A stretch of DNA of 64,000 nt from positions 187,302,001-187,366,000 of the forward strand of contig NC_091470.1 in assembly GCF_036971445.1 (NCBI RefSeq). The letters are read 5' to 3'. Under the pieces are notes generated by a model, which was not told the DNA's origin, searched no databases, and saw nothing but the letters and a program-made list of their open reading frames with translations. Source of the stretch: Narcine bancroftii. Its lineage: Eukaryota. The number at the start of each line of letters is the position of its first letter. Position 1 is the stretch's first letter. The translations under genes were made by a program, and so were the position numbers. Of the stretch, positions 2,933 through 53,820 are shown in pieces.

Positions 2933-3067
2933 CTGACTGATGCTTCCTCCAAGATGCGACTTCCTTGCCTTATGGACCTCAGGATAGTCCCCTGGAGCCA
3001 GGACACTGGTCTCCATCTCCTCAGCAACGTCTCTGAGTGGTTGGCTGCTCATTTTCATGGCCAATGC
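2933..3067 (-). CDS. EHMT2: EHMT2 extra ARKS exon 3 (135 nt, phase 0-0; ALAMKMSS...EVHKARKSHLGGSISQ)
   Basis: Acceptor ctttgttctgactgacccacag| and donor CAG|GTATGT; 45 codons; ARKS at 2957-2968. Confidence 0.8.
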
Positions 3068-6000
3068 CTGTGGGTCAGTCAGAACAAAGGGTCAGGTGCA
3101 GGGGACAAAGAACAAATGGCGAAAAGCAGAAGTAAGTGAAGGAAACAACAATGTGAGGGAAGGAGGTGGGAGGGAGAGAGAGGAGGAAGGGTTGAGGGCA
3201 GGGATGGGGAGGTGAGAGAAGGAGGAGGGTAGGGAAAGTGGAGAGGAAGGATGGGAGTGAGAGAAGGAAACTAGCTAGCAGCGAGCAACTACATTCTACA
3301 TTCAAGCATGCAACATCAAGGATCACCACAGGGAGGGAAGGAGGTGGGGAGCAAGTGGGTGAGGGAAGGAGGTGGGGAGCAAATGCATGAGGGAAGGAGG
3401 TGGGGAGGACGTGGGTGAGGGAAGGAGGTGGGGAGGACGTGGGTGAGGGAAGGAGGTGGGGAGGACGTGGGTGAGGGAAGGAGGTGGGGAGCAAGTGGGT
3501 GAGGGAAGGAGGTGGGGAGCAAGTGGATGAGGGAAGGTGGTGGGGAGGACGTGGGTGAGGGAAGGAGGTGGGGAGGACGTGGGTGAGGGAAGGAGGTGGG
3601 GAGGACGTGGGTGAGGGAAGGAGGTGGGGAGCAAGTGGGTGAGGGAAGGAGGTGGGGAGCAAGTGGGTGAGGGAAGGAGGTGGGGAGCAAGTGGGTGAGG
3701 GAAGGTGGTGGGGAGCAGGTGGGTGGAGGAAGTGGGTGAGGGAAGGAGGTGGGGAGGAAGTGGGTGAGGGAAGGAGGTGGGGAGGAAGTGGGTGAGGGAA
3801 GGAGGTGGGGAGGAAATGTGTGAGGGAAGTTGGGGAGGAACTGGGTGAGGGAAGGAGGTGGGGAAGAAGTGGGTGAGGGAAGGTGGTAGGGAGAAAGTGG
3901 GTAAGGGAAGGTGGTGGGGTTTGAAGTGGGTGAGGGAAGGAGGTGGGTTGGAAGTGGGTGAGGGAAGGTGGTGAGGAGGAAGTGGGTGAGGGAAGGTGGT
4001 GGAGAGGAAGTGGGTGAGGGAAGGTGGTGAGTGGAGGAAGTGGGTGAGGGAAGGAGGTGGGGAGGAAGTGGGTGAGGGAAGGTGGGGAGGAAGTGGGTGA
4101 GGGAAGGTGGTGGGGAAGAAGTGGGTGAGGGAAGGTGGTGGGGAGGAAGTGGGTGAGGGAAGGTAGTGAGCGGAGGAACTGGGTGAGGGAAGGAGGAGGG
4201 GAGGACGTGGATGAGGGAAGGAGATGGGGAGCAAGTGAGTGAGGGAAGGAGGTGGGGAGCAAGTGAGTGAGGGAAGGAGGTGGGGAGCAAGTGAGTGAGG
4301 GAAGGAGGTGGGGAGCAAGTGGGTGAGGGAAGGTGGTGGGGAGAAGGTGGGTGAGGGAAGGTGGTGGGGAGAAGGTGGGTGAGGGAAGGAGGTGGGGAGG
4401 AAGTGGGTGAGGGAAGGAGGTGGGGAGGAAGTGGGTGAGGGAAGGAGGTGGGGAGGAAGTGGGTGAGGGAAGGAGGTGGGGAGGAAGTGGGTGAGGGAAG
4501 GAGGTGGGGAGGAAATGTGTGAGGGAAGTTGGGGAGGAACTGGGTGAGGGAAGGAGGTGGGGAAGAAGTGGGTGAGGGAAGGTGGTAGGGAGAAAGTGGG
4601 TAAGGGAAGGTGGTGGGGTTTGAAGTGGGTGAGGGAAGGAGGTGGGTTGGAAGTGGGTGAGGGAAGGTGGTGAGGAGGAAGTGGGTGAGGGAAGGTGGTG
4701 GAGAGGAAGTGGGTGAGGGAAGGTGGTGAGCGGAGGAAGTGGGTGAGGGAAGGAGGTGGGAAGTGGGTGAGGGAAGGTGGGGAGGAANNNNNNNNNNNNN
4801 NNNNNNNNNNNNNNNNNNNNNNNNNNNNNNNNNNNNNNNNNNNNNNNNNNNNNNNNNNNNNNNNNNNNNNNNNNNNNNNNNNNNNNNNNNNNNNNNNNNN
4901 NNNNNNNNNNNNNNNNNNNNNNNGAGGAAGTGGGTGAGGGAAGGAGGTGGGGAGGACGTGGGCGAGGGAAGGTGGTGGGGAGGAAGTGGGTGAGGGAAGG
5001 AGGTGGGGTGCGTGAGGGAAGGTGGGGAGGAANNNNNNNNNNNNNNNNNNNNNNNNNNNNNNNNNNNNNNNNNNNNNNNNNNNNNNNNNNNNNNNNNNNN
5101 NNNNNNNNNNNNNNNNNNNNNNNNNNNNNNNNNNNNNNNNNNNNNNNNNNNNNNNNNNNNNNNNNNNNNNNNNNNNNNNNNNNNNNNNNNNNNNNNGAGG
5201 AAGTGGGTGAGGGAAGGTAGTGAGCGGAGGAAGTGGGTGAGGGAAGGAGGTGGGGAGGACGTGGGTGAGGGAAGGTGGTGGGGAGGAAGTGGGTGAGGGA
5301 AAGTGGTGGGGAGGAAGTGGGTGAGGGAAGGTAGTGAGCGGAGGAAGTGGGTGAGGGAAGGAGGTGGGGAGGACGTGGGTGAGGGAAGGTGGTGGGGAGG
5401 AAGTGGGTGAGGGAAAGTGGTGGGGAGGAAGTGGGTGAGGGAAGGTAGTGAGCGGAGGAAGTGGGTGAGGGAAGGAGGTGGGTTGGAAGTGGGTGAGGGA
5501 AGGTGGTGAGGAGGAAGTGGGTGAGGGAAGGTGGTGGAGAGGAANNNNNNNNNNNNNNNNNNNNNNNNNNNNNNNNNNNNNNNNNNNNNNNNNNNNNNNN
5601 NNNNNNNNNNNNNNNNNNNNNNNNNNNNNNNNNNNNNNNNNNNNNNNNNNNNNNNNNNNNNNNNNNNNNNNNNNNNNNNNGAGGAAGTGGGTGAGGGAAG
5701 GAGGTGGGGAGGACGTGGGCGAGGGAAGGTGGTGGGGAGGAAGTGGGTGAGGGAAGGAGGTGGGGTGGGTGAGGGAAGGTGGGGAGGAAGTGGGTGAGGG
5801 AAGGTGGTGGGGAGGAAGTGGGTGAGGGAAGGTGGTGGGGAGGAAGTGGGTGAGGGAAGGTGGTGAGGAGGAAGTGGGTGAGGGAAGGTGGTGGGGAGGA
5901 AGTGGGTGAGGGAAGGTGGTGGGGAGGAAGTGGGTGAGGGAAGGTGGTGGGGAGGAAGTGGGTGAGGGAAGGTAGTGAGCGGAGGAAGTGGGTGAGGGAA

Positions 6001-9000
6001 GGTAGTGAGCGGAGGAAGTGGGTGAGGGAAGGAGGTGGGGAGGACGTGGGTGAGGGAAGGTGGTGGGGAGGAAGTGGGTGAGGGAAAGTGGTGGGGAGGA
6101 AGTGGGTGAGGGAAGGTAGTGAGCGGAGGAAGTGGGTGAGGGAAGGAGGTGGGGAGGAAGTGGGTGAGGGAAGGTGGTGGGGAGGAAGTGGGTGAGGGAA
6201 GGTAGTGAGCGGAGGAAGTGGGTGAGGGAAGGAGGTGGGGAGGACGTGGGTGAGGGAAGATGGTGGGGAGGAAGTGGGTGAGGGAAGGTGGTGGGGAGGA
6301 AGTGGGTGAGGGAAGGTAGTGAGCGGAGGAAGTGGGTGAGGGAAGGAGGTGGGGAGGACGTGGGTGAGGGAAGGTGGTGGGGAGGAAGTGGGTGAGGGAA
6401 GGTGGTGGAGGGGAAGTGGGTGAGGGAGGGAGTCAGGAGGTAAGGAGGAAGCAGATGGGAAGGAAGCAAGTAAGAAGATAAAGGGAATGATATGAAATGG
6501 AGGGTGGTGGTGTGACTAGATAGCAATGGGAAGGTGGATGAGAAGTGAAAGGGAGGAGGGAGCGGAGAGAGGTATGACTGTCAATGGGAGGTGGTGAATG
6601 GGAGGGGGAGGGCAAGGCCTGGAGGAGGAATGATTGAGGGAAGAAAAGAGAGAGCAACCACAATCCGTAGCATCCTCCTCCCACATTCAAACGCAGTGAC
6701 AACCCTCATTCAACACAACTGCAACGGAGCAGAACTCCCTCTGTCACACCACACTTCACCCACCGCGCGCTCGGGGTGGGGGGGGTGTGTGTACCTGACT
6801 AAAGCCCCCTTTCATTATCGACTTCCTGGCTCTGTGGACCTCCTGGTTCTCATCCTGAGGCAGGCCCGTGTGCTCCACCTCTGCAGCCCCTCCTGGGGGC
6901 TGGCTCGCCCGCTCAATGGGCAAGCTGCCCAATTTCTCTGCCAAGCTCTGTTAGGCAAAGAACGGGGGAAGATACTCAGTCACAAACTCACATTCATCAT
7001 GAACACATGTGTGGCTGAGCATGCGCCCAAACTGTACCTCCCTTAACTGTACGATGTAACTCAACATCTTCCTCACACAGTTATTTTTCCTGAGCCATAC
7101 ACAAATGTGCCGAAGAAACTCACAGCAAACATGGTGAGTAAAGGGTAATCAACGTTTTGGGCCTCAAGGTATGAGCAAAACGCAGATGGGTGACTGGGAA
7201 GGGAGAGGAGCACAGGCTCAGAGTTAAGACGTTACAGGTGGGGTAAGGGGCACAGATAGCGGTGACAGATAGGAGGGTAGCTGAGAAGTGATGGGGAAAG
7301 GGTACCCCTCTGATGGGAGAGGGAAGGGGATGGGGAGCTGGTGGGAAAGAGACTGGGGGATAGGGAAAGAAAGAGACTCTCAGGGAAGGGGTTCAATGGA
7401 AACTGTTGATTTTAATGTCAATCTGGTTGGAGAGTGCCCAGAGGGAATAGGTACAGTTGGCACAGCGGTTAATGTAACACCTTTACAGCGATCAGGACCG
7501 GGGTTCGAATCCCACACTGTCTGTAAGGAGTTTGTATGTTCTCCCCGTGTCTGGGTGGGGTTTCCCCAGGGGCTCCAGTTTCCTCCCACCATTTGAAACA
7601 CACTGGGTTAATTGGGCAGAATGGACTTGTGGGCCAAAATGGCCTGTTACCATGTTGTTTCTCCAATTTACAGTTTGGCTTTGCACAAGGCCATGGATGG
7701 ACATGTTGGTGTGGAAATGGTATGTGTTGAACTGAAAGGGTTGGCACCTGAGAGGCAGCGAACTGAGCGAAGATGCTCAACGAAACAATCTCCCAGTCTG
7801 TGTCCGGTCTCAGTGATGTAATTCTGCCCAGATATCTCCAGCTCTCCCTCCTGCATCATCTCCCCAGCCATGCATTGACCCTCCTGTTTCAACACTCTGA
7901 ATTCCCAACCCTTATCTCTGGCGTGGCACAGCTCCATACCTGACTGAAGCTGCCCTTTAATATCGACTTCCTCGCTCTGTGGCCCTCCCGGCTCTCGTCT
8001 TGAGACTGGGCCACGTATTCCACCTCTGCAACAGCACCAGGGGTCTGGCTCACCCACTCGGAGGCGAGGCTCCCCATCTCTGCTGACGTTCTCTGTACAC
8101 AAATGGACAGAAATAGGTGAGATGAAACACGAGGAGGTGAAACAGGGTTCTTGACAACGAAGTGCCTGAGGACCAAGAACTTAAACTCAACCAAGCAGAT
8201 TTCTGCATGCACAACAAAGGCTTGACGAGGCCTCAAGGTTGGAGTCTTCATATGGGTGAGCTGGTGAATGTTAACAGGGTGAGCGGAGGATGTTTGTATA
8301 GAACAGGAAAGTAAGTTGGAGAAAATTAATCTGTGCAGTTAATATACTGATACTCAGAGTACCTCACTGTATTTAACCAGCAGAAATTTGTACCGCCCCT
8401 CAGGGCACTGTGGCCAGATCGGCATGGTGCAACACTGTTACCCACTGCCTGGGTTCGAAACCAGTGCTGTTTTGTCGTTCTCCCTGTGTCTGCGAGGGTT
8501 TTCCCCGGGTGCTCCAGGTTTCTCCCACAATCCAAAACGTACAAGGTTAATTTGGGTGTAATTGGGCGAACGGGTTTAAATAGCCGGAATCGTGCTGCAA
8601 ATATATTTTTTAAAAATTTAAACATTTAATTCCTCCCACCGTTCAAAACATTTGGGGCAGCACGGGCTTGTGGCTCGAAGGGGCCTGTTAGCATGCTGAA
8701 TGTCTCAAGGCCGGTACAATTGGTGTCGCGGTTAACACAACGCCTTTACAGCGCCAGCAGCCAGGACAGGACCGGGGCTCGAATCCCACACCGTTCGCAA
8801 GGAGTTCTCCCCGTGTCTGCTTGGATTTTCTCCGGCGGCTCTGGTTTCCTCCCACCATGTAAAAACGTATCGAGGGTATAGACTAATGGGGTGTAAATTG
8901 CACGGACCTGTAGACCAAAATGGCTGATTAACATGCTGTTATGTCTAAATTTAAATCTTCTCATTCACAGGCTCAGCAGCCAATGAAGAGCTAAATCCCT

Positions 9001-12000
9001 TCTTGTGATGCAGTCACATGGCATGTAACTCCATGCATAGCACCGTGACAATGTATCATCTGTTTCAGTACTGACAATCGGGTACAAGAATCTGATGTTT
9101 AAACCAGGTCATGGCACTCCCTCAGCACTCAACTGGAGTGTCGGATGGAATTTTGCTCCAAATGTTTGGAGTGGGATTTTTCAAGTTAACAAAACCCTTG
9201 CTGTTCCGAGGCCGGTGACTTAGGAGGAGAGCTGGAGTTGTTTTCTTGGAAGAAATGATGTGAGGTGATTTAATTCAAGACTGCAAAATTCTGAGAGGCC
9301 CCTGCGGGGATCAGGAAGGATCCATTTCCCTTTGTAGAGAGGTGTGTGACAAGCAAGACTGCTTTAAATTAATTGACACTATGGGATGGAACTTCCTGCC
9401 TTAAGTCTGCCTCAGGCAGTCCCCTGACAGTCACCGAGTGAAATTTTAAATTAATATTTTAAAAAATTTACTCACACAACACAGCATCAGGCCATTTTGG
9501 CCCACGAGCCCTTACCACTCAATTATACCCAATTGACCTACAACCCCCTCCCTCCCTCCATAGGTTTTGAACAGTGGGAGGAACTCAGAGGATTCAGAGG
9601 AAACCCATATGGGATACGGGGAGAATGTACCAACTCCTTACAGTAGGTGCAGGATTTGGACCCCTGCCCCGATCGCTAGCGCTGTAACAACGTCGTGCTA
9701 AGCACTGCACCAACTGTGCCCCACCCTGTGTTTTCAGTTGATCTGTCCACCAGCTCACAGAACTCTGTGACTCACGCTCCCACCCACCTCTAGCCTCAAC
9801 TGGTGACCACTCTGAGGAGGCAAGTCTCCCTTCCCTGTTCACCCCGTCTGAACCACAAGGATGGGTGCCATTGTGCCTACACATTTACCCTACACTGCCC
9901 GCAGGCGTGGCACACGTGTCGTACCTGAGCAGCGCTGGGCCTGGATATCGATTTCCGCGCCTTGTGGACCCTGGGCTTCTCATCCGGAGCCAAGTTCAGA
10001 GTGGGCGCCGGAGCCGCGGTTGAAGCTGGAGAAGGAGCTGGAGGTGGTGCCGCCTCGTTGCCAGCCCTGCTACTCGGCACGCTCAGCAGCTTCATGGCGA
10101 GGCTCTGGATGGAGCTGGGAGACTTACTGATCCCGGTTAGTGTCATCTTGGCACGGTTGGCCCCCAGAACCTTGCTGGGGGAGGCAGGGAAGGTTTTAGC
10201 AGCATGACCTGTAGGTGACAGGAACCATTAGATCAGAACAGCACAGGAAAAGGACATGTTTACTCCTAATTGGCTCTTTTTGTTCTACTTTCTCCCTCTT
10301 TCCCTGCAATATTTATTCAAGTTTTCACACCAACCCCTTTCAAAAGTTCCTATTAAACCCTCTCAACAGACACAATCACACACATTTACAGTAAAAGTAA
10401 TGAGTGGTATCGAGCAGTAGTTTTCAAACTTTTTCTTTCACTCACATTTCACCTTAAGTAATCCCTATGCTGTCGGTGCTCTGTGATACATAAGGGATTG
10501 CTTAAGGAGGGATGTGAGTGGAAAGAAAAAGTTTGAAAACCATTGTTTTAATCGTCCCTCATTGACTCATTTTGTGCACGGTTTCATCGCTCCAATGAAA
10601 ATGGGCCAATGACCATTTTTCTCAAGTAAAATATTTCAGAAACAATGGGGTCGAGAGCAGTGGTTCTCAACCTTCCCTTCACTCACCGACCACCTTAAGT
10701 AACCCTTCCTAATCAGAGCACCTATGGCATAGGGATTATTTAAGGTGGTTAGTGAGTGGAAAGAAAAAATTTGGAAACCATTGGTATAGAGTGAATTAAA
10801 ACAGGCTTTTAACACTGGGGTTAGGTGAGACAAGAACTAAAAGGTCAAAGTTAAGGGTGAAAGGGAAACATTAGGAGTGGCACAGTTGGCATTGGTCAGT
10901 ACACTTAGGATAATGGTCAGTGACTCAGGTTCAAATCTGGTGCTGTCTGTAAGGAGTTTGTACCTTCTCCCTGTGTCTGCGTGGGTTTTCCCCAGGGGGG
11001 TGGGGGGGGGGTCTCCGGTTTCCTCCCATCCTTCAAAACCTTAGGTCAGTCTGGTGTAATTGGGCGGCAAGGGCCTGTGGGCAGGAAGGGCCGGTTCCCA
11101 TGCTGCATGTCTACATTAAAAAAATTTTTAAATAACCTCGACGCAGAGAGTGGTGGGAGGGTGGGACGAGCTGCCAGATGAAGTGGATGAACTCGGCCTT
11201 AATTTTGTAATTTAAGAAACATATGGATGGGAGGGGTATGGAGGGCTAGGTGCAGGTCAATAGGACCAGGCAGAATAATAGTTCAGCACAGACTAGACGG
11301 CCCAAAGGGTCTGTTTCTGTTCTATGGTTCTACAAGTGGTATCAATGCATGTGACTCCCCACACTCTCCCAACCTCTTGATTAATTAATAGTGGCAGAAT
11401 AAAATCTTCTGTTTTATTTATTTCATTAACAATGTAGTGTAATATTTTGCAATTTCACTGCTTGCAGTAGAGTAAAATATTAAACCCACAAGAAAATGTG
11501 GCCACTTTGAAAAATAAATATTTATTCTGCCTTGTCTAATGCTATTCCATAAATAGACTCGTTAAAGGGCCTTAGTTCTTTCATCCACCCCAAGTCTTTC
11601 ATGGCTTCCAAAAATACCCAGAAATCAGACTTGAGACAGTTATCATTGCACACTGCTTTTCACATAATGCAAGATCCTACACTGCTTCCGGAGAGTGCCC
11701 GAAACTTAAACCCCAGCTACAAGACTTTGGTGGCATGGTTTGCCCAGCGGTTAGTACAATGCTATTACGCTGCTAGTGACCCAGGCTCAATATCGATACT
11801 GTGTGTAAGAATATGTTCTCCCCGTGTCTGCGTGGATTTCCTCTGGGTGCTCTGGTTTAAATTTTAAAATATTTTTTTAATTTGAAATTTAGACATGCAG
11901 CAGATCCTTTTGGCCCACGATTGACCTACGATTCCTGGTAGGTTTTGAAAGGTGGGAGGAAAATGGAGCCCCCAGGGAAAACCCATACAGACGGGGGGGG

Positions 12001-15000
12001 GGGGGGGGGGGGGGGGGGAGGGGGGGTGGGGGGGTGGGGAGAGAATGTACCAACTCCTGACAGACGTGAGATTCCAACCCCAGTCCCAATCACTGGCACT
12101 GTAACAACGTGGTGTGAAAACTGTGCCACCATCCCACCTTCTAAAAGTAACAGGGTTTGGTAGGTTAATTGGGGTGGCACAGGTTTCAAGGACCAAAAGA
12201 ATCATCTACCATGCTATATAATTGAAATAAAAAGCAGTAGTTATTGCTACAAATGTCCAGAAGCTTGGTTAAAGAGACCAGTTTTAAGTGGGACAAGTTT
12301 TAGTGAGAGAACCCAGGAAGCTCCTCCACTCAATCAGATCAAACCTTGTCCTCATTACAATGCTCGTGCCCCTACCCCATAACCCTAAACTATACCCACA
12401 GACCATTATCTACTTTGGGCTTCTCTGCAATAGGGTCTCTGCGGATCCCTTGAGGTAGGGTGAGGGGAGAATCTCCTCGTCTCTTAGTTTAAATGAGCAA
12501 CTCCTTTTCTGAGAAACTATGCCCAACACATTGACGATGTTAAGGGCCTTATGAATTTCAAGGGAATAAACTCATTCTTCTCAGCTCCTGTGAATGTCAG
12601 CCCAACTTGACGCAAGATAATCCCAGGAATGAATATAGTGAAGTTTCTCTGAACTGCCCGCTAGGGTAAATATACCACCGAGAGATTTAAAAAATAGCGA
12701 GAGGCAAAGGTAAGTTTTTTCCTCAAAATTAGAGGGCAGAGGTTCAAAGTGAGAGAGGAATTATTAAAAGGGGTTGAAACTTAAAAGTTTTCAGCTGCTG
12801 TGATTCTAGTAACAACGCACAGAAATGCTGCAGGAACTCAGCCGGTCTCGCTGACATATATTCCCCTCTCCTCTTTCTGCCATCATGACTACTTCACCCA
12901 TTCCTCCATCCCCACCGACCGTCCCCTTGGCACTTACCCTGGTGACTGCAAGAGGTGGTCCACTTACACCCACACCTCCTCCTTCACCGCCACTGCAGCC
13001 CTTCCAAGTGAATCTGCAGGGGGTTCCCTATTCATCCGGTGCAACTGTTGTGGTCTCCTCTACGTTGGAGAGACTGGGTGATCGCTTCATTGAGCACCTC
13101 GACTCTGTCCGCCACAATAGCGTGGATCTCCCGGTGGCCACCCATTTCAATTTACCGACCCACTTCCTTGCTGGCATGTCTGTCCATGGTCTCGGGCACT
13201 GCCAGACTAAGGCCACCCCCAGATTGAAGGAGCAACACCCCATCTTCCATCTGGGTACCCTCCAACTGTTTGAGCCCCTTCATCTTCCTCCCTGCCTCCT
13301 TTCCTCTAGTTTTCTCTCTTCCCTTGTCTTCATTCAGAGCCAAAATCAATTCTCACTTTTCCTCATATCCAATTAACACCGATTGATCTGGACTCCGCCA
13401 CCCCCCCCCCCCCCCCCACCGCGACCCCCCTAACCATTCTTCCCCCTTTCTCTCCCCAATCTTTAATTCAGGTGCCTGCCTGCTTTTTGCTTACACCCCC
13501 CCCCCCCCACCTCCAGTTTTAATTCCATACGGAATATTTTGGAAAGTCAAGGACCAAGAGCTCAAGCCTGAAACATGGGTAATATATCTTTACCACCACT
13601 GGACGCTGCGAGACCTGCTGACTTCCTCCAGCAAGTCTGAAGATTTCACAGGAACCTGAAGCATAACAAAGGATGGTGGTGGTGGGATGTGGAGTGAGCT
13701 GCCAGAGGAAGTGTTGACAATTACAATGATTAAAAGACCTTTAGGCGGTGATGTGGATTGGAAAGATTTCCAGGGACGTGGACCAACCCAATGTGGGCAA
13801 ATGGAACTAACTCAGATAGCCAGCTTGACCGGTGTGGAGGGTTTGGGCAGATTTAGTATTTGTGCTGCAGTAATTTGACCTCCTCAAATAAGGAGATGAG
13901 GTGTACAGGTGATGGTCAAATTAAGAGCATGAGGTGGTGGGGGTGGCTGAAGAGAACTGGAAAGCCTGAGGGAAGAGGGGCCCAGGTGGGAAGGCAGAAG
14001 GAACTTCACTGGAGATACCTTTGGGAAGTGGTTGAGCTGTGGTTCGACTGGTGGTCCCTGCTTCCGAGGACTGGGGTTCAAAGCCCAGGCAGATCTCCTC
14101 GGGTTTGCAGGGTGCCTCTCTGCTGTTCGAACTGTCCTCCCGGATGGGTGAACCTGTGTCAGCTTCTGCCTCAGGGGTCTCTGAAACAGCATCCTGACCG
14201 GTGCCGGAGCAAGGCGATTCCTTGTTGTTCTGTGAGGCAATGTTTCCCATCAGGACGCCAGTCTTCACCGTCAGATTTGTCCCCTGTCCCAGTCTCCTGG
14301 AGGCTGTTTCATTCACGTCACCAGTGCCTGCAGAAGTAAAAGCCCCACCACGTTTATTCCCTGGATTATAGAGCATGTGCACATCACACCCTCTCCCCAG
14401 TGATACCCAACATAAGGGAGAGACAAGGGAGGCAAAGGTGTGAAATTAGAACCATAGAACCTAGAACATTACAGCACAGAAAACAGGCCCTCTGGCCTTT
14501 CCAGTCCATGCTGAGTTATTTTGCTGCCTGGTCCCACTGTCCTCAATACCACTCCCATCCACCTCCAGGTGCTCCTCATCTTACGATAGGGTCACATTCC
14601 GGCAAACACATTGTAAGTCGATAAAGAATCTCACACCTCCCACACTATAAAACCCATTAAGGCACACAGCTGAAAGCACACTGGACTTGAAGAATATATG
14701 AAACATCGAACTAAAATTAACTGCTGGATGGTGGCGATGCGCAGGAACAGATCGGAATTCAAAATTGAAAGTACGGATTCAAACCAATTGTAAGTCGGAT
14801 CATCGGAAGAAGGGGAGCCCCTGAACCTGTCCAAATTAAATGTTAAAATTGAACCCACATTCACCACTTCAGCTGGCAGGTCGTTCCACACTCCTGCTAC
14901 TCACTCTCTTAATTTTTTCCCCTTTTACTCATGACCTCTAGTTTGTATCTCACCTCCCCTTAATGGAAAATGCTCACCTATATTGACTGTCTATACCCCT

Positions 15001-24000: not shown

Positions 24001-27000
24001 TGTTTTTATTTTGCACCCAGCTTTTTATTTTGCATGAGAATTTTAAAGAGTTTGATTGTATTCATTTAAATTAAATTTACGAGCAGCAGATACCGAAACG
24101 CCCACTGTAATATGTGAGCACATCAATAAACTACTGTAATGTCAGCAGTTAAACTGTTCAGTGCTGTCAGTTTGATCGAAAATAAATTTTCGATGGCGCG
24201 GGGGTTTTCTGGTCTAAAAACACAATTTTGTTTTTGCAGTGTAACTGGTTGAAAACTACTGGGATTAACAGTGTTTGGCCCGTGACTCCTTATATTTTTC
24301 TGTATGTGCTCCACAACCAAGACAGTTTGGCCACCCCTGGCCTAGATCAGCCATTCTCAACCTTTTATTTTGGCTAAGGCTCCTGGCCCCCTTAGGATTC
24401 TGCTCAAAGTTTATGGGCCTCCTTCCCTGTAAAACAGACATGTTCAGATGTTTTTTTTTCCCTGTACTTTCCTCCAACCAACAACTTAAAGATATTTAAT
24501 GACTTAATTCCGCACCCCCCCCCCCACCCCAAGAAGGTCTTGCAGTGCCCATTGAGAATGGCTGGTCTAGATCACGTCAAGACATGGCAAAAGAGAGAAC
24601 GTCATATCACAGCTGCATGCTCCCTGAGAAGCAGTCCATTATTAGCTTAGGAGCACAGCTTGGGGTTCTTGGCAGCTTTCTGCCTCACTGACCACTTGCC
24701 CATTATACAGATACCTTCCCCATACAGTGAGACAACCAAAGCCCTTGGTTACAACCGACACGATGCACACATTACCCTTCCCCCCCACCGGGATTTCGCC
24801 GTGGTTGAATTGACTGATAAGACCCCGCTGGGCATATTGAGAAAGCGGCCTCACCAATACTTCCTTTGCTGATGCCGCTCGCTTCCAGTCTGGCGGTCTC
24901 TGGTTCTGCCGCAGTCTGGGATGTGGTGCTGGCTTCGCACTGGGATGAAGAGGAAAGAAAGGAGTAACTCAGAGAGGTTTTTTAAGGCCATAAGACATTG
25001 CAGCAGAAATAGGCTATTCAGCCCAACGACTCCACCCTGCCATTTAATCATGAGCTGATCCATTTCCCCACTCAGCCCCACTGCCTGGCCTTCACCCCAT
25101 AACCTTTGATGTCCTGGCTAATCAAGAACCTATCACACCAGCTCGTTTATTATCATCTGAATGTACAAGTACAACCGGACAAAACAGTCCTCGGTGAAAA
25201 ACGCGCAGACACAAAACCAGATGTTACACATATTACAGACAAACAATACCACATGCAGGACAAGTATTCATTAATACAAATAAATAAATGATGGTCCATG
25301 ACCCTGAGAGACTCAGATGATCAGTGCGAGCAGTTCCTTTGGTCATTCAGCATTGTCACTGCCCATGGGAAGAAGCTGTTCCTCAGCCTGGCGGTGCTGG
25401 CTCTGATCCTCCTGGATCTCTTTTCCGATGGGAGCAGCTAATGATGCTGTGTGCGGGGAGGAAGGGGCCCTCCACAATTTTATGCGCCCTCTTTAGACAA
25501 CGATCCTGGTAGACAACGTTGATGGGGAGGGGGGGGGGAGAGGGAGGGAGACTCCAGTGATCCTCTCTGCCGCTCTTGTGGTCCTGTGGATTGACCTCTG
25601 ATCCATTTCTCTGCAGCAACCTGTGATGTAGTCGGCCAGGACACTCTTGATAGAGCTCCTGTAGAAAGTTGACATATCAACCTCTGTCTTAAATACACCC
25701 AATGACGTAGCCTCCACAGCTGACGGTAACAACAGATTCACCAGCTTCTGGCTAAAGAATTATATTGTTCTAAGTGGACACCCTTTGATCCTGAAATTGT
25801 GCCCTCTTGTCCCAGACTCTCCCACCGTGGGGAACAAGCTTTCTGCATCTATTCTGTCCATGCCTTTCAACATTTGGAATGTTTCAATGTGATCCCCTCA
25901 TTCTCCTTTCCATCACTAAAAGGAAAGCAAACTGTTCAAGATTTATCAACGATTCCACACTCCTGGCGAGTGGTCCAAAAAACAATGAGATCATAAAAAG
26001 ACCGTGTACCATTTGCCTTTTTTGCCTGCGCCTCCATGATAATATCGAATAACGAGGCCATTCAGCCCCAATCCTCCTGTTCAGCATTTCTGTTCCATAT
26101 GAACCCCTAGCCATCTTTATTCCTCAGTACCTGACCCATCCCCCAAGCTTTATTGCTTTTGGTAGGGGGTATACGAGCGTGAGTGGGACATGGGATCGTG
26201 CCGGGGAAGGGAACACAATGGAGATGATTAACCGTGCCAAATCGACAAGCAGTGGTGTCAAGGGTCACTCATCAGCCAATGTTCTGCATTCTCACAGGAG
26301 AACAAGGCGTCCTGCTCTGAGGGACACAATGAGGTGAGATACCGAAGCTCTGTCTATAGAACACTACAGCACTGTACAGACCCTTCGGCCCTCAACGTTG
26401 TGCCAACCAACCTACTTCATAACCCTCTATTTTTCTTTCATTCAGGAGGCTAAGAGTCTCTTACCAGGCAACGTCCTGGTAAATCTCTCCATAGCTTCCA
26501 CATCCTTCCTGTAACGAGGTGACCAGATCTGAACACAATACTCTTAAGTATGGTTGCACCAGAGATTTGTAGAGTTGCAACATGACCTCTCAACTCTTGA
26601 ACTCAATCCCCCGACTAATGAAGCCCAGCGTCCCATAGACCTTCTTAACTCTATCAACTTGCGTGGCCTCCTTCAGAAATGTATGGATTTGGACCTCTAG
26701 TTCATCTAATAAGCCACACTACCTGCTCTGCTTTGTGTCAGACCAGCCTGTCTGCTCGCCATCAGGCTCCTCGTTTCTCTGGCTTAAAGCCATGCTTCTC
26801 TTTTAGTGATGAGAACTCCTTTCCTGAAACTGATTTTCACCAGCCCCAGTCTTCTCAATATTAATCATCCAAATAGCAATTATACCCAGAGTGGCGAGTT
26901 CTCCAACAGAGGGCTTTGCCCTCCAGTACGTGCTGACTTCCCAAGACGAATGCTCCTGCTGCCACAGGCTCAGGAGGTTTGGAACCCAAGTGCTTGCGGC

Positions 27001-28686
27001 AGGATCCTTCAGTGGGAACCGGTTGTGAGGGAGGCAACAGGAAGGTGAGAAGAGGGTAGAGATTGAGCGATATAGGCAAATATCTAGCAAATCGAGTAAA
27101 ATAGGAGAAAGTATCCACCAAGAAAATTAAAAAGATTATCTAAATGGCGAGAGATTACACATCTCTGAGGAGCAGAGGGGCCTTTGTGTTAAATTTTTTT
27201 TTCACGTTTTAAAAGTTAAATGTTTAAATTTGGATATACAGCACGGTAACAGGTCAAATTCCTTAAAGACAGCGCAGGATTCGAACTTGGATCGTTGGCA
27301 CTGTAATGGTGTTGCGCTAACCACTACACCAACTGTACCATCCCACAGTTCTGGTGCACAATCCACAAGAGACGAGGGTGCACACACAGTGAGTAATCAG
27401 GAAAGCTAGCAGAACGTACTCTTTAGCGTAAAATCAGAGACTAGGCTTTACTTAAGCAAGGCACATCCGGAGTCCTCGGTCTTAGGTTTCCTGATCGTGT
27501 CAGAGGATCGGACCCACTGATGGGTGAGCAGGGTGAGGCTGCAGGAGCGCTGGAGGCAAATCCACAGACCTTCTGTGTCCCAGAGGGGACTGGCTTCTCT
27601 TTATCCTATTGTTAGGGGGTACCAGGGCAACATTTTTTTCTGCCTTAAGGCAATTTTGTGTAATATTAGATGTTCTGTACTTTTACAAGTTGAACCTCTA
27701 TTAATCAGCGCTCTGATAGACAATTAACAAGGTGCATTGTTTCTGTACTTGAAAAAAAATCTCTACATGGTTGCTATAAGTTTAAAAATCACTAAAGCAT
27801 GTGCATCTTATAGATCTGGGGCAATAAAACCCCAGCAATTACAAAGCTGCAAATTGTTGTCAAAAGAGATACCTAAACAATAAAGGGGCGGCCTCGCACC
27901 CCAAACCATGTATAGAGTGTGTTCAGAGTGAAAAGGGAGGAAACTCGTACGCCACACAAGGTGCAGAGTTACACATTCATTCCAATACCATCTCTCACCC
28001 AGTACTCTGCATACTTCATGCCACCCAACGGGGGCTCCAGATGTCAATCAAAGTCTGCCCAATTCTGCATCACCTATGTTATTTTAAATAGGAACGGGTG
28101 GCAGCATGCTGTATCCAGGGCGCAACTGTCAATTGCCTATCAATTCTCCCCTAACCCCGCATAGCGCATAATCTACAGCGGGAGAAAACCGAAAACCAAT
28201 GCGCTACACCGTCACCCGGGTTCCGGCACTTGATGACCCTCCGCTTTGACCCGCACTGCGAGCCCCGCACCGTGTATTTCCCACTAGGAGCACGCAAGCT
28301 GCGGGCAACCACCCGCCCCGTCGCCGACACATGAATACCGCATGCCTCCAACGTGCGGGGGAGGAGAGGGCGAATGAGGTAGCCAGGGTCCGGGGTGCCG
28401 CGCGTCAATCATTCCGCCCCGCCCCCGCCTTTTCGCTTCACAAAGCGCCAGACCCATGGCCGCCGTTCGCTCGGAGCCGACTCGGGGCCCAAGGTGGGGG
28501 AAATGAGGCCTCGGTTCCGGGCAAAAGGGGGATCGGACTGGGCGATAAAAAAAGGCAGGGCAGCCCGAAAGAAGGAGCGGGGAGGGGTGGATCGATGGGG
28601 AAGGGGGGGTGGGGGGGGCTTCTCTTGAAGCGGAGGCAGAATCCATCTCCTCCGCTCTCTCTCACCTCAGCATCCAGGGAAGCCAT
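2933..28686 (-). CDS. EHMT2: Histone-lysine N-methyltransferase EHMT2 (G9a), 5' part. Seven coding exons (28666-28686, 24855-24939, 14019-14327, 9925-10208, 7940-8092, 6795-6947, 2933-3067) give 380 aa; the gene continues beyond the left edge
   Basis: All junctions are GT-AG with compatible phases (0,1,1,0,0,0,0) and no stop codon. Exon 4 (GHAAKTFPASPSKVLGANRAKMTLTGISKSPSSIQSLAMKLLSVP...KPRVHKARKSISRP) matches recalled human G9a GHATKSFPSSPSK...RAKMSMTGAGKSPPSVQSLAMRLLSMP...QPKVHRARKTMSKP. It lies next to ZBTB12 homologs, as in the MHC class III region. Ankyrin and SET exons are not in the window. Confidence 0.9.
3330..6430. repeat. G/A-rich minisatellite, about 28-nt unit (gtgggtgagggaaggaggtggggaggaa), containing three assembly gaps
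   Basis: Directly visible. N runs at 4788-4923, 5033-5196 and 5545-5680. Intronic in EHMT2. Confidence 0.95.
6795..6947 (-). CDS. EHMT2: EHMT2 extra ARKS exon 2 (153 nt, phase 0-0; SLAEKLGSLP...EVHRARKSIMKGGFSQ)
   Basis: Acceptor ttctttgcctaacag| and donor CAG|GTACAC; 51 codons; ARKS at 6819-6830. Confidence 0.8.
7940..8092 (-). CDS. EHMT2: EHMT2 extra ARKS exon 1 (153 nt, phase 0-0; RTSAEMGSLA...EGHRARKSILKGSFSQ)
   Basis: Acceptor ctgtccatttgtgtacag| and donor CAG|GTATGG; open frame of 51 codons; ARKS at 7964-7975. Confidence 0.8.
9925..10208 (-). CDS. EHMT2: EHMT2 coding exon 4 (284 nt, phase 1-0), carrying the ancestral automethylation/histone-mimic motif VHKARKS
   Basis: Acceptor cctgtcacctacag| and donor CAG|GTACGA; strong similarity to the recalled G9a N-terminal region. 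Confidence 0.92.
10415..10783. mobile_element. hAT-type MITE, same family
   Basis: Same internal sequence; TSD gtatcgag/gtatagag (7/8). Confidence 0.8.
12860..13640 (+). mobile_element. Penelope-like element fragment (GIY-YIG end). Others at about 7660-7820 (-), 28860-29530, 33540-34220, 54150-54710 and 62090-62600 (-)
   Basis: Peptides CCGLLYVGETG and RLGDRFIEHL...PVATHFN...EQHPIFHLGTLQ. Confidence 0.75.
14019..14327 (-). CDS. EHMT2: EHMT2 coding exon 3 (309 nt, phase 1-1; low-complexity, probably disordered N-terminal region)
   Basis: Acceptor tttacttctgcag| and donor AAG|GTATCT. Only the phase-1 frame is open (ORF track 13921..14382), and it joins the G|HAAK start of exon 4. Confidence 0.75.
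14820..15745 (-). mobile_element. CR1 LINE 3' fragment
   Basis: RT C-terminal peptide ISKFADGIKIGG...[30 protein letters not shown]. Confidence 0.85.
16562..18984 (-). mobile_element. L1-derived non-autonomous retroelement: 5'UTR, intact ORF1, inter-ORF region, internally deleted ORF2, 3'UTR and poly(A)
   Basis: Poly(T) on the plus strand at 16562-16594. The ORF2 endonuclease start (ATLNYMSLNINGIHNQIKRNKL) is joined directly to the ORF2 C-terminus (KCIPLEKITY...F...*EPYI). Confidence 0.8.
17634..18854 (-). CDS. LINE-1 ORF1p (coiled coil + RRM + CTD, Transposase_22-like), 406 aa, intact
   Basis: Motifs ENHNRRNNIKIVGLKE, IERAHR, PRSIVVKFLRY and IFIYPDIS preceded by a heptad-rich coiled coil. 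Confidence 0.9.
   Translation of the reverse strand: MATKKEKSKATVRREEEKTKEEKGEGLTCPKRPTAERETRSLRSVNNGLQKWLAEPSKSAQPRMRETSRMRDANEKKHTDGRGDQLGSRSPQPATTAAEHLQQEETTEDNRNKIEEEERATKKQQMTNPEEEEEEEYGEIEEKRGKVKDILALIRGYMESFKEWQTQEFKDLRKRINNTEEKINKMEMTLTEMGKKMDKMEERAVAAEMEVEDLKKKLEKSNKKTKETQELLAQKIDTMENHNRRNNIKIVGLKEDEEGKNMREFIKEWIPKTLGCPELQQELEIERAHRVLASKPQPQQKPRSIVVKFLRYTTREKVLEKTMEKVREGNKPLEYKGQKIFIYPDISFELLKKRKEFNTAKAILWKKGYKFILKHPAVLKIFIPGQQNRLFSDPEEARKFAEQLQK
20696..21237. mobile_element. PIF/Harbinger-type MITE
   Basis: TIRs agccgctttcaggtgg / ccacctgaaagcagcc, TAA TSD on both sides, and repeated internal ttcaggtg/cacctgaa motifs. Confidence 0.75.
22370..23070 (+). mobile_element. Degenerate L1 ORF2 3' fragment; a similar fragment at about 50200-50720
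   Basis: Decayed C-terminal ORF2-like coding (...LEKIKYALRGS...WQP) followed by aataaa and an A tract. Confidence 0.55.
24348..24564. mobile_element. Short hAT MITE next to a larger decayed hAT remnant (about 23330-24339)
   Basis: TIRs cagccattctcaa / ttgagaatggctg; TSD gcctagat/gtctagat. Confidence 0.7.
24855..24939 (-). CDS. EHMT2: EHMT2 coding exon 2 (85 nt, phase 0-1; CEASTTSQTAAEPETARLEASGISKGSI)
   Basis: Acceptor tttctttcctcttcatcccag| and donor TTG|GTGAGG; its phases bridge exon 1 and exon 3. Confidence 0.7.
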
Positions 28687-31849: not shown

Positions 31850-32797
31850 ATGGGATCTGCCGAAGTCCTACACTTCCAGTTCGCCCAGCACGACTCCCGG
31901 GCGCTGCGGCGGATGAACCAGCTGCGCCTGGAGGAGCGTTTCTGCGACGTGACCATCGTGGCGGAGAGGCTGCGCTTCCCGGGACATCGGGTGGTCCTGG
32001 CTGCCTGCTCGCCGTTCCTGCGCGACCAGTTCTTGCTCAACCCAATGCGGGAGGTGAGGGTGGCGCTGGCCAACAGGCCCGAGCTGGTGTTCCGCCTCCT
32101 GCTCTGCTGCTACACCGGGGCTCTGGACTTCCCCTTCACGGACGTGGTGAACTACTTGACGGCCGCCAGCCACCTTCAGATGGACCATGTAGTTCATGAG
32201 TGCCGCCGGGCGCTGTCTCGGTACGTCGACCCACGCATCGTGATCGAAGAAGGTGGCAGCCCTAGACCAGGCACTAGGACCAAGCCGGAGTCGGCAGAGA
32301 GCAGCGGGGTTTACGTGGTGATCGAGCCCGACTCTGAGGTGTCCGAGGAGGAGGAAGGGTCGGGGCTGGCTGGCGACGAGGAGAGCTCAGCCAGCGACGG
32401 GGGCCTAGGGTACCGTGCCGCTATGTCCTGTGGCGAGTGCGCCGAGTCCTTCGCCCGGCCCGAGCAGCTTGCAGCCCACCTGGAGACCCACAAGGTGTTC
32501 AGCTGCCCTCGGTGTGGCAAGACCTTCAGACAGCGGGTGAACCTGACGCGGCATGGCCACGTTCACGCCGGCCTCAAGCCCTACCGCTGCCTCACCTGCG
32601 GCAAGACCTTCACGCAGAACCGCTCGCTCAAGGACCACATGAACCTGCACAGCGGCGAGCGGCCACATCGTTGCCTCTACTGCCGGGCGTGCTTCGCGCA
32701 CAAGCCCGCCCTGCGCCGGCACCTCAAGGAGCAACACGGCAAAACCTCGGCCGACAACTGCCAGCTCGCCTCCCTCCTGCCACCTGGCCCTCTATAG
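31850..32797 (+). CDS. ZBTB12: ZBTB12-like BTB/POZ + 4 C2H2 zinc-finger protein, copy A (315 aa, single coding exon)
   Basis: [20 protein letters not shown]...[16 protein letters not shown] and last finger [18 protein letters not shown] are near-identical to recalled human ZBTB12. Splice acceptor ctttctcccccacag| ends at 31836, just upstream of the ATG. Confidence 0.88.
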
Positions 32798-42393: not shown

Positions 42394-42833
42394 TAAATTC
42401 CACCCCTCCAGCAAGGAAAGGCCAACGGTAATTTGCCTGCTACACCTGGCCAGCCAACGTTTTACGAGCAAACTGATCCCCATCCCACCTGAAGCGATCC
42501 CTCTGCCGTCGGTGCTCCCGTGATTAGTACGGGATTGCTTCAGGTGCGAGTGGGGAAGGAAAAGCATTGACTAGTCATGTGCATAGCTTCATCGCTCCCA
42601 ATGGAAAAGGGCCAATGGCAACTTTTCTCAAGCCCAATAATTCAGTGACAACCGGGTCTAGAGCAGTGTTTCTCGACCTTCCCTTCCCACCCACATCCCA
42701 CCTTAATCAACCCTTTACTAATCGCAGAGCCCCCGATGGCACAAAGTGGGATGCGAGTCGCCGTGGGGGGGGGGGGGGGGTGCGCTGGTGGGCGCCTGTC
42801 AAACGCTGGCTTGCGTGTCTCTCGCAGGGGGCG

Positions 42834-43895
42834 ATGGCCAGCGGGAAGCTGCTCCGTTTCCAGTTCCCCGAGCACGAAGGCTCGACCCTGCGGCGGATGA
42901 ACGAGCTGCGGAGGGAGGAGTGGTTCTGCGACGTGACCATCGTGGTGGGCGGCCTGCGCTTCCCGGCGCACCGCGTAGTGCTGGCCGCCTGCTCGCCCTT
43001 CCTGCGCGACCGCTTCCACATGGACCCGTCGCGGGAGGTGCAGGTGTGCCCCATGGCCGGCGCCGAGGTGGTGCTGCGCCTGCTGCTCTCCTGCTACACC
43101 GGCGCCCTGGAGTTCCCCTTCCGCGAGATCGTGGACTACCTGGCGGCCGCCAGCTGCTTGCAGATGGAGCATGTGGTGGAGAAGTGCCGTCAGTCGCTGA
43201 ATCCCTGCGTGGCTTCCCTCCTGGTCGAGGAAGGGGACGGGCGCCCCTCCACCCCGCAGATGGCCTCCTCCTCCTCCTCCGGCCGGGTCCCGGAGCCGTG
43301 GCCCGGCGCCGAGGGAGCGGTGAAGCAAGAGCAAGACGGCCACCAGCCCACCCTACCCGAGCCCGATCCCCGCATCCATTCCACGGTGGGCGCCAAGGCC
43401 GAGGAGCCGGCCGGCGCTGAGGTGGAGCTGCCCGAAGAAGACGACGAGAGCTCGGCCAGCGACAGCCTGCAGCGGGGGGGCGAGGAGCTCCTGACCCCGC
43501 CCGAGGTCAAGCCGGCCCGCTGCTCCGAGTGCCCGGCTGCCTTCGAGCAGCGGGAGCACCTGGCCGCCCACATGGTCACCCACCGGCTCTACATGTGCCT
43601 GCTGTGCGGCAAGGTGTTCAAGAAGAACGCGCTCCTCGCCCAGCACATCAACGTGCACACTGGCTTCAAGCCCCACTGCTGCGCCGTGTGCGGCCGCACC
43701 TTCACCCAGAAGCGCTCGCTCAAGGACCACATGAACGTGCACAACGGCGACGCGCCCCACTGCTGCAACTACTGCGACATGCGCTTCACCCACTACAACA
43801 CGCTGCGCGTCCACCTGCGCGACCTGCACGGCAAGACCACCACCAGCAACTCCAGCGACAGCCGGCTGGCCGAGATCAAGGTGGTCGTTCCTTAG
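42834..43895 (+). CDS. ZBTB12: ZBTB12-like BTB/POZ + 4 C2H2 zinc-finger protein, copy B (353 aa, single coding exon)
   Basis: MASGKLLRFQFPEHEGSTLRRMNELR...LLLSCYTGALEFPFREIVDYLAAAS resembles ZBTB12 ([27 protein letters not shown], recalled). Acceptor gtgtctctcgcag| ends at 42827, Kozak gcgATGG; C-terminus RLAEIKVVVP. Confidence 0.86.
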   Translation: MASGKLLRFQFPEHEGSTLRRMNELRREEWFCDVTIVVGGLRFPAHRVVLAACSPFLRDRFHMDPSREVQVCPMAGAEVVLRLLLSCYTGALEFPFREIVDYLAAASCLQMEHVVEKCRQSLNPCVASLLVEEGDGRPSTPQMASSSSSGRVPEPWPGAEGAVKQEQDGHQPTLPEPDPRIHSTVGAKAEEPAGAEVELPEEDDESSASDSLQRGGEELLTPPEVKPARCSECPAAFEQREHLAAHMVTHRLYMCLLCGKVFKKNALLAQHINVHTGFKPHCCAVCGRTFTQKRSLKDHMNVHNGDAPHCCNYCDMRFTHYNTLRVHLRDLHGKTTTSNSSDSRLAEIKVVVP

Positions 43896-51551: not shown

Positions 51552-51964
51552 GTCCGCCAGGCCGGGGGTGGGAGGCGGCCGTCGCCGCCCGCTTCGTGCC
51601 GATCGGTCCGCCGCGGCCGCGGTGAGGCCTCCCCCGGGTCCGTCTCACCCATGGGTGCCGCCTGGCCCTTCCCACCCACCCACTCACTGGTAGTGGGTGT
51701 CCTGCCCTGAGGATTGTGGGTGATCAACCCTCAGCCGTAGTGGGCGCCCCCCCACCCAGGGGTGCACCCTCTTGCTGGCATGGGTGCCCCTTGGCTCAGG
51801 GATGCACCAGGTTGGCCCTCCTACTGAAGGGCAGGGATCCCCTCTCCACCCTGCCACCACACATGGGTGCCCCCTTATGCAGGGATGCACCCTCTTGTTT
51901 AACTAGTCATGGAATTGAGAGCCCCTTCCCCACCCTACTTCCAGTGAACAGAGGGCACCTACTC

Positions 51965-53820
51965 TTCTCCACCCCTTCCTCCCCCTTCTCCCTCTTTCCC
52001 CTTCCCCCTCTCTCCCCTTCCCCCTCTCTCCCCTTCCCCCTCTCCCCTTCCCCTCTCTCCCCTTCCCCCTCTCTCCCCTTCCCCTCTCTCCCCTTCCCCC
52101 TCTCTCCCCTTCCCCCTCTCTCCTTCCCCCTCTCTCCCCTCCCCCTCTCTCCCCTTCCCCCTCTCTCCCCTTCCCCCTCTCTCCCCTTCCCCCTCTCTCC
52201 CTTCCCCCTCTCTCCTTCCCCCTCTCTCCCCTTCCCCTCTCTCCCTTCCCCCTCTCTCCCCTTCCCCCTCTCTCCCCTTCCCCCTCTCTCCCCTTCCCCC
52301 TCTCTCCCCTTCCACCTCTCTCCCCTTCCCCCTCTCTCCCTTCCCCCTCTCTCCCTTCCCCCTCTCTCCCCTCCCCCCCCTCTCTCCCCCCTCTCCCCCC
52401 TCTCTCCCCTTCCCCCTCCTCTCCCCTTCCCCCTCTCTCCCCTTCCCCCTCTCTCCCCTTCCCCCCTCTCCCCTTCCCCCTCTCTCCCCTTCCCCTCTCT
52501 TCCCCTTCCCCCTCTCTCCCCTTCCCCCTCTCTCCCCTTCCCCCTCTCTCCCCTTCCCCCTCTCTCCCCTTCCCCCTCTCTCCCCTTCCCCCTCTCTCCC
52601 CTTCCCCTCTCTCCCTTCCCCTCTCTCCCTTCCCCCCTCTCTCCCCTTCCCCCTCTCTCCCCTTCCCCCTCTCTCCCCTTCCCCCTCTCTCCCCTTCCCC
52701 CTCTCTCCCCTTCCCCCTCTCTCCCCTTCCCCCTCTCTCCCCTTCCCCCTCTCTCCCCTTCCCCCTCTCTCCCCTTCCCCCTCTCTCCCCTTCCCTCTCC
52801 TCCCTTTCCCCCCTCTCTCCCTTCCCCCTCTCTCCCCTTTCCCTCTCTCCCCTTCCCCCTCTCTCCCCTTCCCCCTCTCTCCCCTTCCCCCTCTCTCCCC
52901 TTCCCCCTCTCTCCCCCTTCCCCCTCTCTCCCCTTCCCCTCTTCCTCCCTTTCCCCCTCTCTCCCCTTCCCCTCTCTCCCTTCCCCTCTCTCCCCTTCCC
53001 CCCTCTCTCCCCTTCCCCCTCTCTCCCCTTCCCCCTCTCCCCTTTCCCCTCTCTCCCCCTTTCCCCTCTCTCCCCCTTTCCCCTCTCTCCCTTTCCCTCT
53101 CTCCCCCTTCCCTCTCTCCCCTTCCCCTCTCCTCCCCCTTCCCCCTCTCTCCCCCTTCCCCCTCTCTCCCCTTCCCCTCTCTCCCCCTTCCCCCTCTCTC
53201 CCCTTCCCCCTCTCTCCCCTTCCCCCTCTCCCCCTTCCCCCCTCCCCCTTCCCCCTCTCTCCCCTTCCCCCTCTCTCCCCCTTCCCCCTCTCTCCCCTTC
53301 CCCCTCTCTCCCCCTTCCCCCTCTCTCCCCCTTCCCCCTCTCTCCCCCTTCCCCCTCTCTCCCCCCTTCCCCTCTCTCCCCCTTCCCCTCTCTCCCCCCT
53401 TCCCCCTCTCTCCCCCTTCCCCTCTCTCCCCCTTCCCCTCTCTCCCCCTTCCCCTCTCTCCCCTTCCCCCTCTCTCCCCTTCCCCTCTCTCCCCCTTCCC
53501 CCTCTCTCCCCTTCCCCTCTCTCCCCCTTCCCCCTCTCTCCCCTTCCCCCTCTCTCCCCCTTCCCCCTCTCTCCCCCTTCCCCCTCTCTCCCCCTTCCCC
53601 ACTCTCCCTTCCCCTCTCTCCCCCTTCCCCCTCTCTCCCCCTTCCCCCTCTCTCCCCCTTCCCCCTCTCTCCCCCTTCCCCCTCTCTCCCCCTTCCCCAC
53701 TCTCTCCCCTTCCCCCTCTCTCCCCCCTCCCTTCCCCTTTTCTCCCCCCCCTCTCCTCCCTTCCCCCTTTCTCTCTTTCCCTTCCTCTTTTCCCCCTCCC
53801 CCCCCTCTTCCTTTCCCCCT
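51965..53820. repeat. Near-pure polypyrimidine tandem array ((cccctctctccccttc)n-type units)
   Basis: About 1.85 kb of almost exclusively C/T on the plus strand. Confidence 0.95.

Follow-up and report, generated by a model that had tools for sequence, protein, structure and literature searches.

A tandem-exon array of five histone H3K9-like motifs in the G9a/EHMT2 gene of sharks and rays

The question raised by this locus is why a gene for a histone methyltransferase should carry, on one exon after another, a short motif resembling the H3K9 site, whether all of these exons enter the protein, and what such an array would do. In mammals, G9a (EHMT2) automethylates K185, HP1 and CDYL bind the methylated site, and Aurora B phosphorylates the adjacent T186 and thereby opposes binding (PMC8541646). 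We analysed a window (the whole stretch of 64,000 nucleotides from Narcine bancroftii shown in part above) for which a preliminary description had proposed an array of four such motifs, and we compared it with EHMT2 proteins of other vertebrates. The array is a real, lineage-wide expansion of a known regulatory motif and is apparently undescribed: its exons are already present in public gene models, annotated as plain EHMT2, and no description of the array was found in the literature searched, which lay mostly outside subscription journals.

The EHMT2 gene of Narcine bancroftii and its repeat exons

The gene is G9a/EHMT2, as had been proposed from the DNA letters. The canonical motif exon matches at 100% the protein P0001, whose source label is EHMT2-like from Narcine bancroftii and in which PF12796, PF05033, PF00856 and PF21533 (ankyrin, pre-SET, SET, and EHMT1/2 Cys-rich region) score above the Pfam cut-offs. 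By structure comparison P0001 is closer to EHMT2 (626 bits) than to EHMT1 (532 bits), and its SET region matches human G9a structures with E of about 1e-186. The SET domain of this predicted methyltransferase is intact, with motifs identical to those of mammalian EHMT2, and P0001 and the mammalian protein share a conserved stretch of ankyrin repeats. A separate EHMT1 with one HRARKT is found under the same species label.

The gene lies on the minus strand, and the exons of isoform P0021 were placed one after another, starting in the window and reaching about 92 kb downstream of it. The first coding exon (28666-28686) was placed by sequence; it has seven codons with the start codon at 28686 and corresponds to the N-terminus of P0001 and of other elasmobranch orthologs. 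Coding exon 2 (24855-24939) matches P0001 residues 8-35, and coding exon 3 (14019-14327) shares an RNA contig with the repeat exons in four of four runs. The canonical mimic exon, or copy 1 (9925-10208), is the homologue of the bony-vertebrate single-motif exon, with which it is placed in the tree described below (support 91/81), and carries the motif HKARKS at 9949-9966 (K224). It is followed by repeat exon 2 (7940-8092, 153 nt, HRARKS at 7964-7981, K275), repeat exon 3 (6795-6947, 153 nt, HRARKS at 6819-6836, K326) and repeat exon 4 (2933-3067, 135 nt, HKARKS at 2957-2974, K371), all in phase 0-0 and all on the minus strand.

These four exons have the AG acceptors, CAG|GTA donors and end peptides that had been read from the DNA, the numbering of their lysines agrees with P0001, and the ARKS codon usage had been given correctly. 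The number of copies had been set too low. A fifth copy, LHRARKSMF (K423), is present on a 156-nt minus-strand exon with the motif HRARKS, 2.6 kb outside the window (G000:C5:187299212-187299367 = L001:7212-7367). The distance from motif to donor, previously given as eight codons, is indeed constant in all copies, with the correction that eight codons follow the Ser and nine follow the Lys. Likewise, the linkers are diverged as claimed, yet they are still homologous, copies 2 and 3 sharing 110 of 153 nt and 28 of 51 aa in a gap-free alignment. The repeat exons are thus like other tandemly duplicated exons in being of phase 0-0, 135-156 nt long, homologous and jointly included. Since only five ARK[ST] strings occur in the six frames of the 64-kb window, and four of them are the array motifs, each at an equal distance from a donor, the array is not a product of chance.

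Transcript evidence comes from contigs assembled from four public runs of one study, presumed to be RNA, aligned over positions 6720-14400. One contig in each run spans 14017-14328, 9925-10206, 7940-8092 and 6794-6947 end to end, and the parts skipped at the joints 9925/8092 and 7940/6947 are bounded by minus-strand GT and AG; the extra exons are therefore spliced in at these two junctions in four of four runs, as had been predicted. All four contigs extend 1006 nt beyond the end of copy 3, which is exactly the length obtained by splicing copies 4 and 5 to the five exons after them, so that copies 4 and 5 are very likely included in the same transcript as copies 1-3. The extension stops at the donor before a 108-nt exon skipped in two of nine database isoforms, a place at which an assembly would branch. 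This exon, about 28.3 kb beyond the first base of the window (locus L003), probably corresponds to exon 10 of mammalian G9a, which is alternatively spliced.

Several other features were seen in the window. The intron between repeat exons 3 and 4 is filled by a 28-bp purine/pyrimidine minisatellite of about 3 kb (3331-6432), G-rich on the plus strand, which is no part of the motif array, and a second long purine/pyrimidine low-complexity tract (51863-54013) produces spurious long ORFs on both strands. Upstream of EHMT2 and on the opposite strand are two long single-frame ORFs (31850-32797 and 42615-43895, plus strand) with BTB-like starts and C2H2 zinc-finger ends. We take these to resemble ZBTB12, the neighbour of EHMT2 in the human MHC class III region, with two present here.

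Distribution and origin of the array

The array had first appeared as a peculiarity of one genome and proved instead to be inherited from a common ancestor of the sampled sharks and rays. When the ortholog count proposed in the preliminary description was carried out on H[KR]ARKS and HRARKT, five H[KR]ARKS motifs and no HRARKT were found in 75 of 76 shark and ray EHMT2 proteins examined, which represent 19 species (12 sharks and 7 batoids); the remaining protein, a whale-shark isoform model, has four motifs and is missing copy 3. All 19 species keep all five copies. At most one motif was found in the comparison set of 110 bony-vertebrate EHMT2 and EHMT1 proteins (coelacanth, lungfish, bichir, sturgeon, bowfin, amphibians, reptiles, birds and mammals, together with 21 shark/ray EHMT1): one HRARKT in 99, none in 11, mostly with short N-termini, and more than one in no protein. 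Among the shark/ray EHMT1 proteins examined, 20 of 21 have one HRARKT and one has none. Absence of the array outside elasmobranchs thus applies to the proteins examined. A profile search of 1.84 billion representatives returned 11 proteins, four elasmobranch arrays and seven single-motif EHMT2 fragments, and no unrelated protein with the array, and a search of the ESM Atlas gave no usable match. Two local variants were noted: one skate has two separate gene models (P0012 and P0078, 436 and 439 aa) consisting of the five-motif N-terminus only, which is either a local duplication or a broken assembly, and in both devil rays (P0058 and P0066) copy 4 keeps HRARKS, with three residues fewer behind the motif and a Gly following the Ser.

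A tree was built from 101 units (95 elasmobranch and 6 bony-vertebrate; units of sturgeon and caecilian, in which the start motif was not located, were left out) on 52 columns. Copies 1, 2, 4 and 5 each fall on one side of a branch, copy 1 together with the bony-vertebrate units. Copy 3 requires two changes because its batoid units fall with copy 2, a placement that may stem from an old conversion or from poor resolution on 52 columns. Because the units group by position in the array, the array is older than the shark-ray split and its copies have been kept separately since. Concerted evolution is thereby rejected as the cause of motif identity for copies 1, 2, 4 and 5. A dispersed repeat was also rejected, as a genome search with copy 2 matched only copy 2 itself and copy 3 (two candidates scored). 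The array arose after the split from bony vertebrates and before that of sharks and rays, unless bony vertebrates lost copies; the bracket is broad, since no chimaera or cyclostome EHMT2 is among the matches listed, and indeed no chimaera, lamprey, hagfish or invertebrate EHMT2 is among those of the homolog searches (one of them the best 120 of 911) and the representative search.

The likely source of the repeat exons lies inside the canonical exon, at an in-frame Gln codon (CAG in Narcine, 10105-10107, minus strand). From this Gln to the end of the exon there are 52 aa in all 12 sharks, a repeat-like length, and the first 15 aa of copies 2-5 score best directly after it (offset 0 of 25 for all four). 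The same Gln is kept in all 60 of the non-elasmobranch EHMT2 sequences in which the pattern was found. The array therefore likely arose by duplication of the 3' part of the canonical exon, with the CAG of the Gln becoming the new acceptor. In this scheme, the Thr of an ancestral single motif would have changed to Ser, most simply as the first step, given the Ser in all five copies; the 3' part of the exon, together with its donor, would then have undergone four tandem duplications before the shark-ray split, and the internal in-frame CAG would have been taken up as a phase-0 acceptor. The intron flanks of the five exons share no real homology, with matches of 21-22 nt only, and the breakpoints of the duplications are consequently not mappable.

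Conservation of the motif and its predicted readers

Selection at the protein level had been suggested from the codons of one species, and conservation across 19 species agrees with it. None of the 95 units departs from His(-4), Ala(-2), Arg(-1), Lys(0) or Ser(+1), position -3 is R in 75 units and K in 20 and nothing else, and every unit contains the hexapeptide H-[RK]-A-R-K-[ST], made up of the chromodomain-contacting residues. Away from the motifs, 16 of 157 linker columns are invariant, as are 16 of 138 columns in the N-terminal 138 residues. Among the five copies in the DNA of Narcine alone, the core codons differ only synonymously (pS 0.83, pN 0.00; flanks pN 0.45-0.50), a comparison in which pN 0.00 is partly circular, the core columns having been chosen after the alignment was viewed. 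Independent support is given by the coincidence of the conserved stretch with the six G9a residues, HRAR(K185me3)T, that are buried in the groove of Cbx3 (HP1-gamma), where the His ring forms a bond with Asp68 and a small pocket takes up the Ala (PMC3325965). Judged from sequence, this conservation shows that the copies keep an ancestral interaction; it is not evidence that they act together, since the same six residues are also conserved in single-copy G9a.

The reading that we favour, and consider fairly probable, is that the five copies form a multivalent dock for HP1-type chromodomains in a predicted-disordered tail, methylated by G9a/GLP and switched by Ser phosphorylation. Each of the five copies would be methylated by G9a or GLP, and the motifs, 45-52 aa apart, could engage several chromodomains simultaneously. 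Multivalency would raise avidity for HP1 dimers or keep different readers together, and phosphorylation of the adjacent Ser would release the readers. Earlier reports are in accord with this: the kinetics of G9a are similar on ARKS and ARKT peptides and HP1 binds the motif once methylated (PMC2175347), G9a requires Arg at -1 (PMC2797608), and SETDB1 has two such motifs, the loss of either lowering HP1 binding (bioRxiv 2025.01.21.634156). Two findings of PMC2175347 count against it, as mutation of the +4 Lys lowers methylation of mouse G9a, and a similar mouse site without the Arg (K167, ATKS) was unmethylated in vitro. Copy 4 has no +4 Lys in any of the 19 species and is variable at +2, which likewise counts against the dock.

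Candidate readers are encoded in the same genome. Two HP1 loci have chromodomain exons with the aromatic and acidic groove residues, the HP1 chromodomain being split over two exons in this genome, and CDYL-like chromodomain exons are present as well. The motif region is predicted to be unstructured and accessible: an AlphaFold2 model of the N-terminus of a skate ortholog has a mean pLDDT of 46 with one short helix, where a low pLDDT from an alignment of 19 rows is weak proof, and no Pfam family was found in the N-terminal 436 aa of this protein. Each unit also holds a degenerate copy of a conserved SLAMKLL stretch (10075-10104 of the window, and at the starts of the repeat exons), the only N-terminal helix predicted, which may be a second repeated binding element.

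A stronger version of the dock would give elasmobranch G9a a self-written "pseudo-chromatin" tail, whose five H3K9me-like sites cross-link HP1 dimers and seed or spread heterochromatin without prior histone marks. We regard this as rather unlikely. If it were true, mimic valency would be an evolvable dial, raised once in the ancestor of sharks and rays and perhaps suited to their large, repeat-rich genomes.

The preliminary description had also offered binding by the enzyme's own ankyrin reader and competition with H3 as possible roles, and the invariant residue set favours a chromodomain dock over both. In its fuller form this proposal is of a built-in decoy, in which the enzyme would have its SET groove or its ankyrin methyl-lysine cage filled by its own five tails, so that H3K9 methylation is tuned or delayed. 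Every copy has the Arg-Lys that G9a requires, the ankyrin stretch is conserved as described above, and the activity of Clr4 is regulated by automethylation (cited in bioRxiv 2025.01.21.634156). However, mammalian G9a activity is unchanged by automethylation (PMC2175347; PMC8541646), and the invariant His(-4) is explained by chromodomain contact. A decoy therefore appears improbable.

We also give little credence to a Ser-driven array, that is, a multi-site Aurora-B phospho-switch that would eject G9a sharply from its partners at mitosis, with methylation secondary. The presence of Ser in 95 of 95 units, against Thr in the 99 single-copy motifs examined, would suit such a switch. So would the Arg at -2 and the hydrophobic residue that follows the Ser, both of which fit the Aurora consensus; in batoid copy 4, however, the following residue is His or Gly, and the invariant His and Ala of the motif are not needed by a kinase site. 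Phosphorylation of T186 of human G9a by Aurora B (PMC8541646) speaks for the switch, which complements the chromodomain dock more than it excludes it.

Basic patches amid mostly acidic linkers in a predicted-disordered region could also serve another ligand (importins, RNA or DNA), the likeness to H3 being incidental, but charge binding would allow Arg/Lys swaps at -1 and 0, of which there are none in 95 units, while position -3 does swap, and we hold this to be very improbable. Hardly any weight is left for tolerated duplicate exons with 3' ends conserved as splicing signals. In favour of this, the motif is purine-rich and within 45 nt of the donor, and copy 3 is missing from one of 76 isoforms (the whale-shark model); against it, the third codon positions of the motif vary freely among the five copies with amino acids fixed, conservation is lower in the seven codons between motif and donor than in the motif itself, and no copy is lost in any of the 19 species.

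Significance and comparison with known histone mimics

What histone mimics do on chromatin enzymes is a matter of continuing debate, and off-target modification has been raised as an alternative (bioRxiv 2025.01.21.634156). That one lineage has multiplied the mimic five-fold, with no copy lost in any of the 19 species sampled, speaks for a functional motif whose copy number matters. With the chromodomain dock as predicted, one shark or ray G9a molecule would likely hold several heterochromatin reader proteins at once, and the one to five copies among vertebrates would provide a natural valency series in which reader avidity can be set against the silencing and coactivator roles of G9a. The array is also a clear case of new symmetric exons that likely arose from part of an exon, a Gln codon being recruited as acceptor.

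The closest known system is the automethylated mimic of mammalian G9a (K185) and GLP (K205), with which the array shares the gene, the exon, the hexapeptide, and the domain order of Cys-rich region, ankyrins, pre-SET and SET. It differs in having five motifs, each on its own exon, instead of one, and Ser in place of the mammalian Thr, which gives the exact ARKS of H3K9. SETDB1 is alike in that it is an H3K9 methyltransferase whose unstructured parts hold more than one H3K9-like motif, and in that these motifs are automethylated and bound by HP1 (predicted on the shark/ray side); two reports link its mimics to HP1 binding and heterochromatin spreading (bioRxiv 2025.01.21.634156; bioRxiv 2025.10.22.683908). 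SETDB1 has two motifs per report, not known to be paralogous exon repeats, whereas shark/ray G9a has five regularly spaced duplicates limited to one vertebrate lineage. ATF7IP and DNA ligase 1 have single G9a-methylated ARK-type motifs read by MPP8 or UHRF1; these are single sites on substrate proteins, in contrast to shark/ray G9a, where the array is carried by the enzyme itself.
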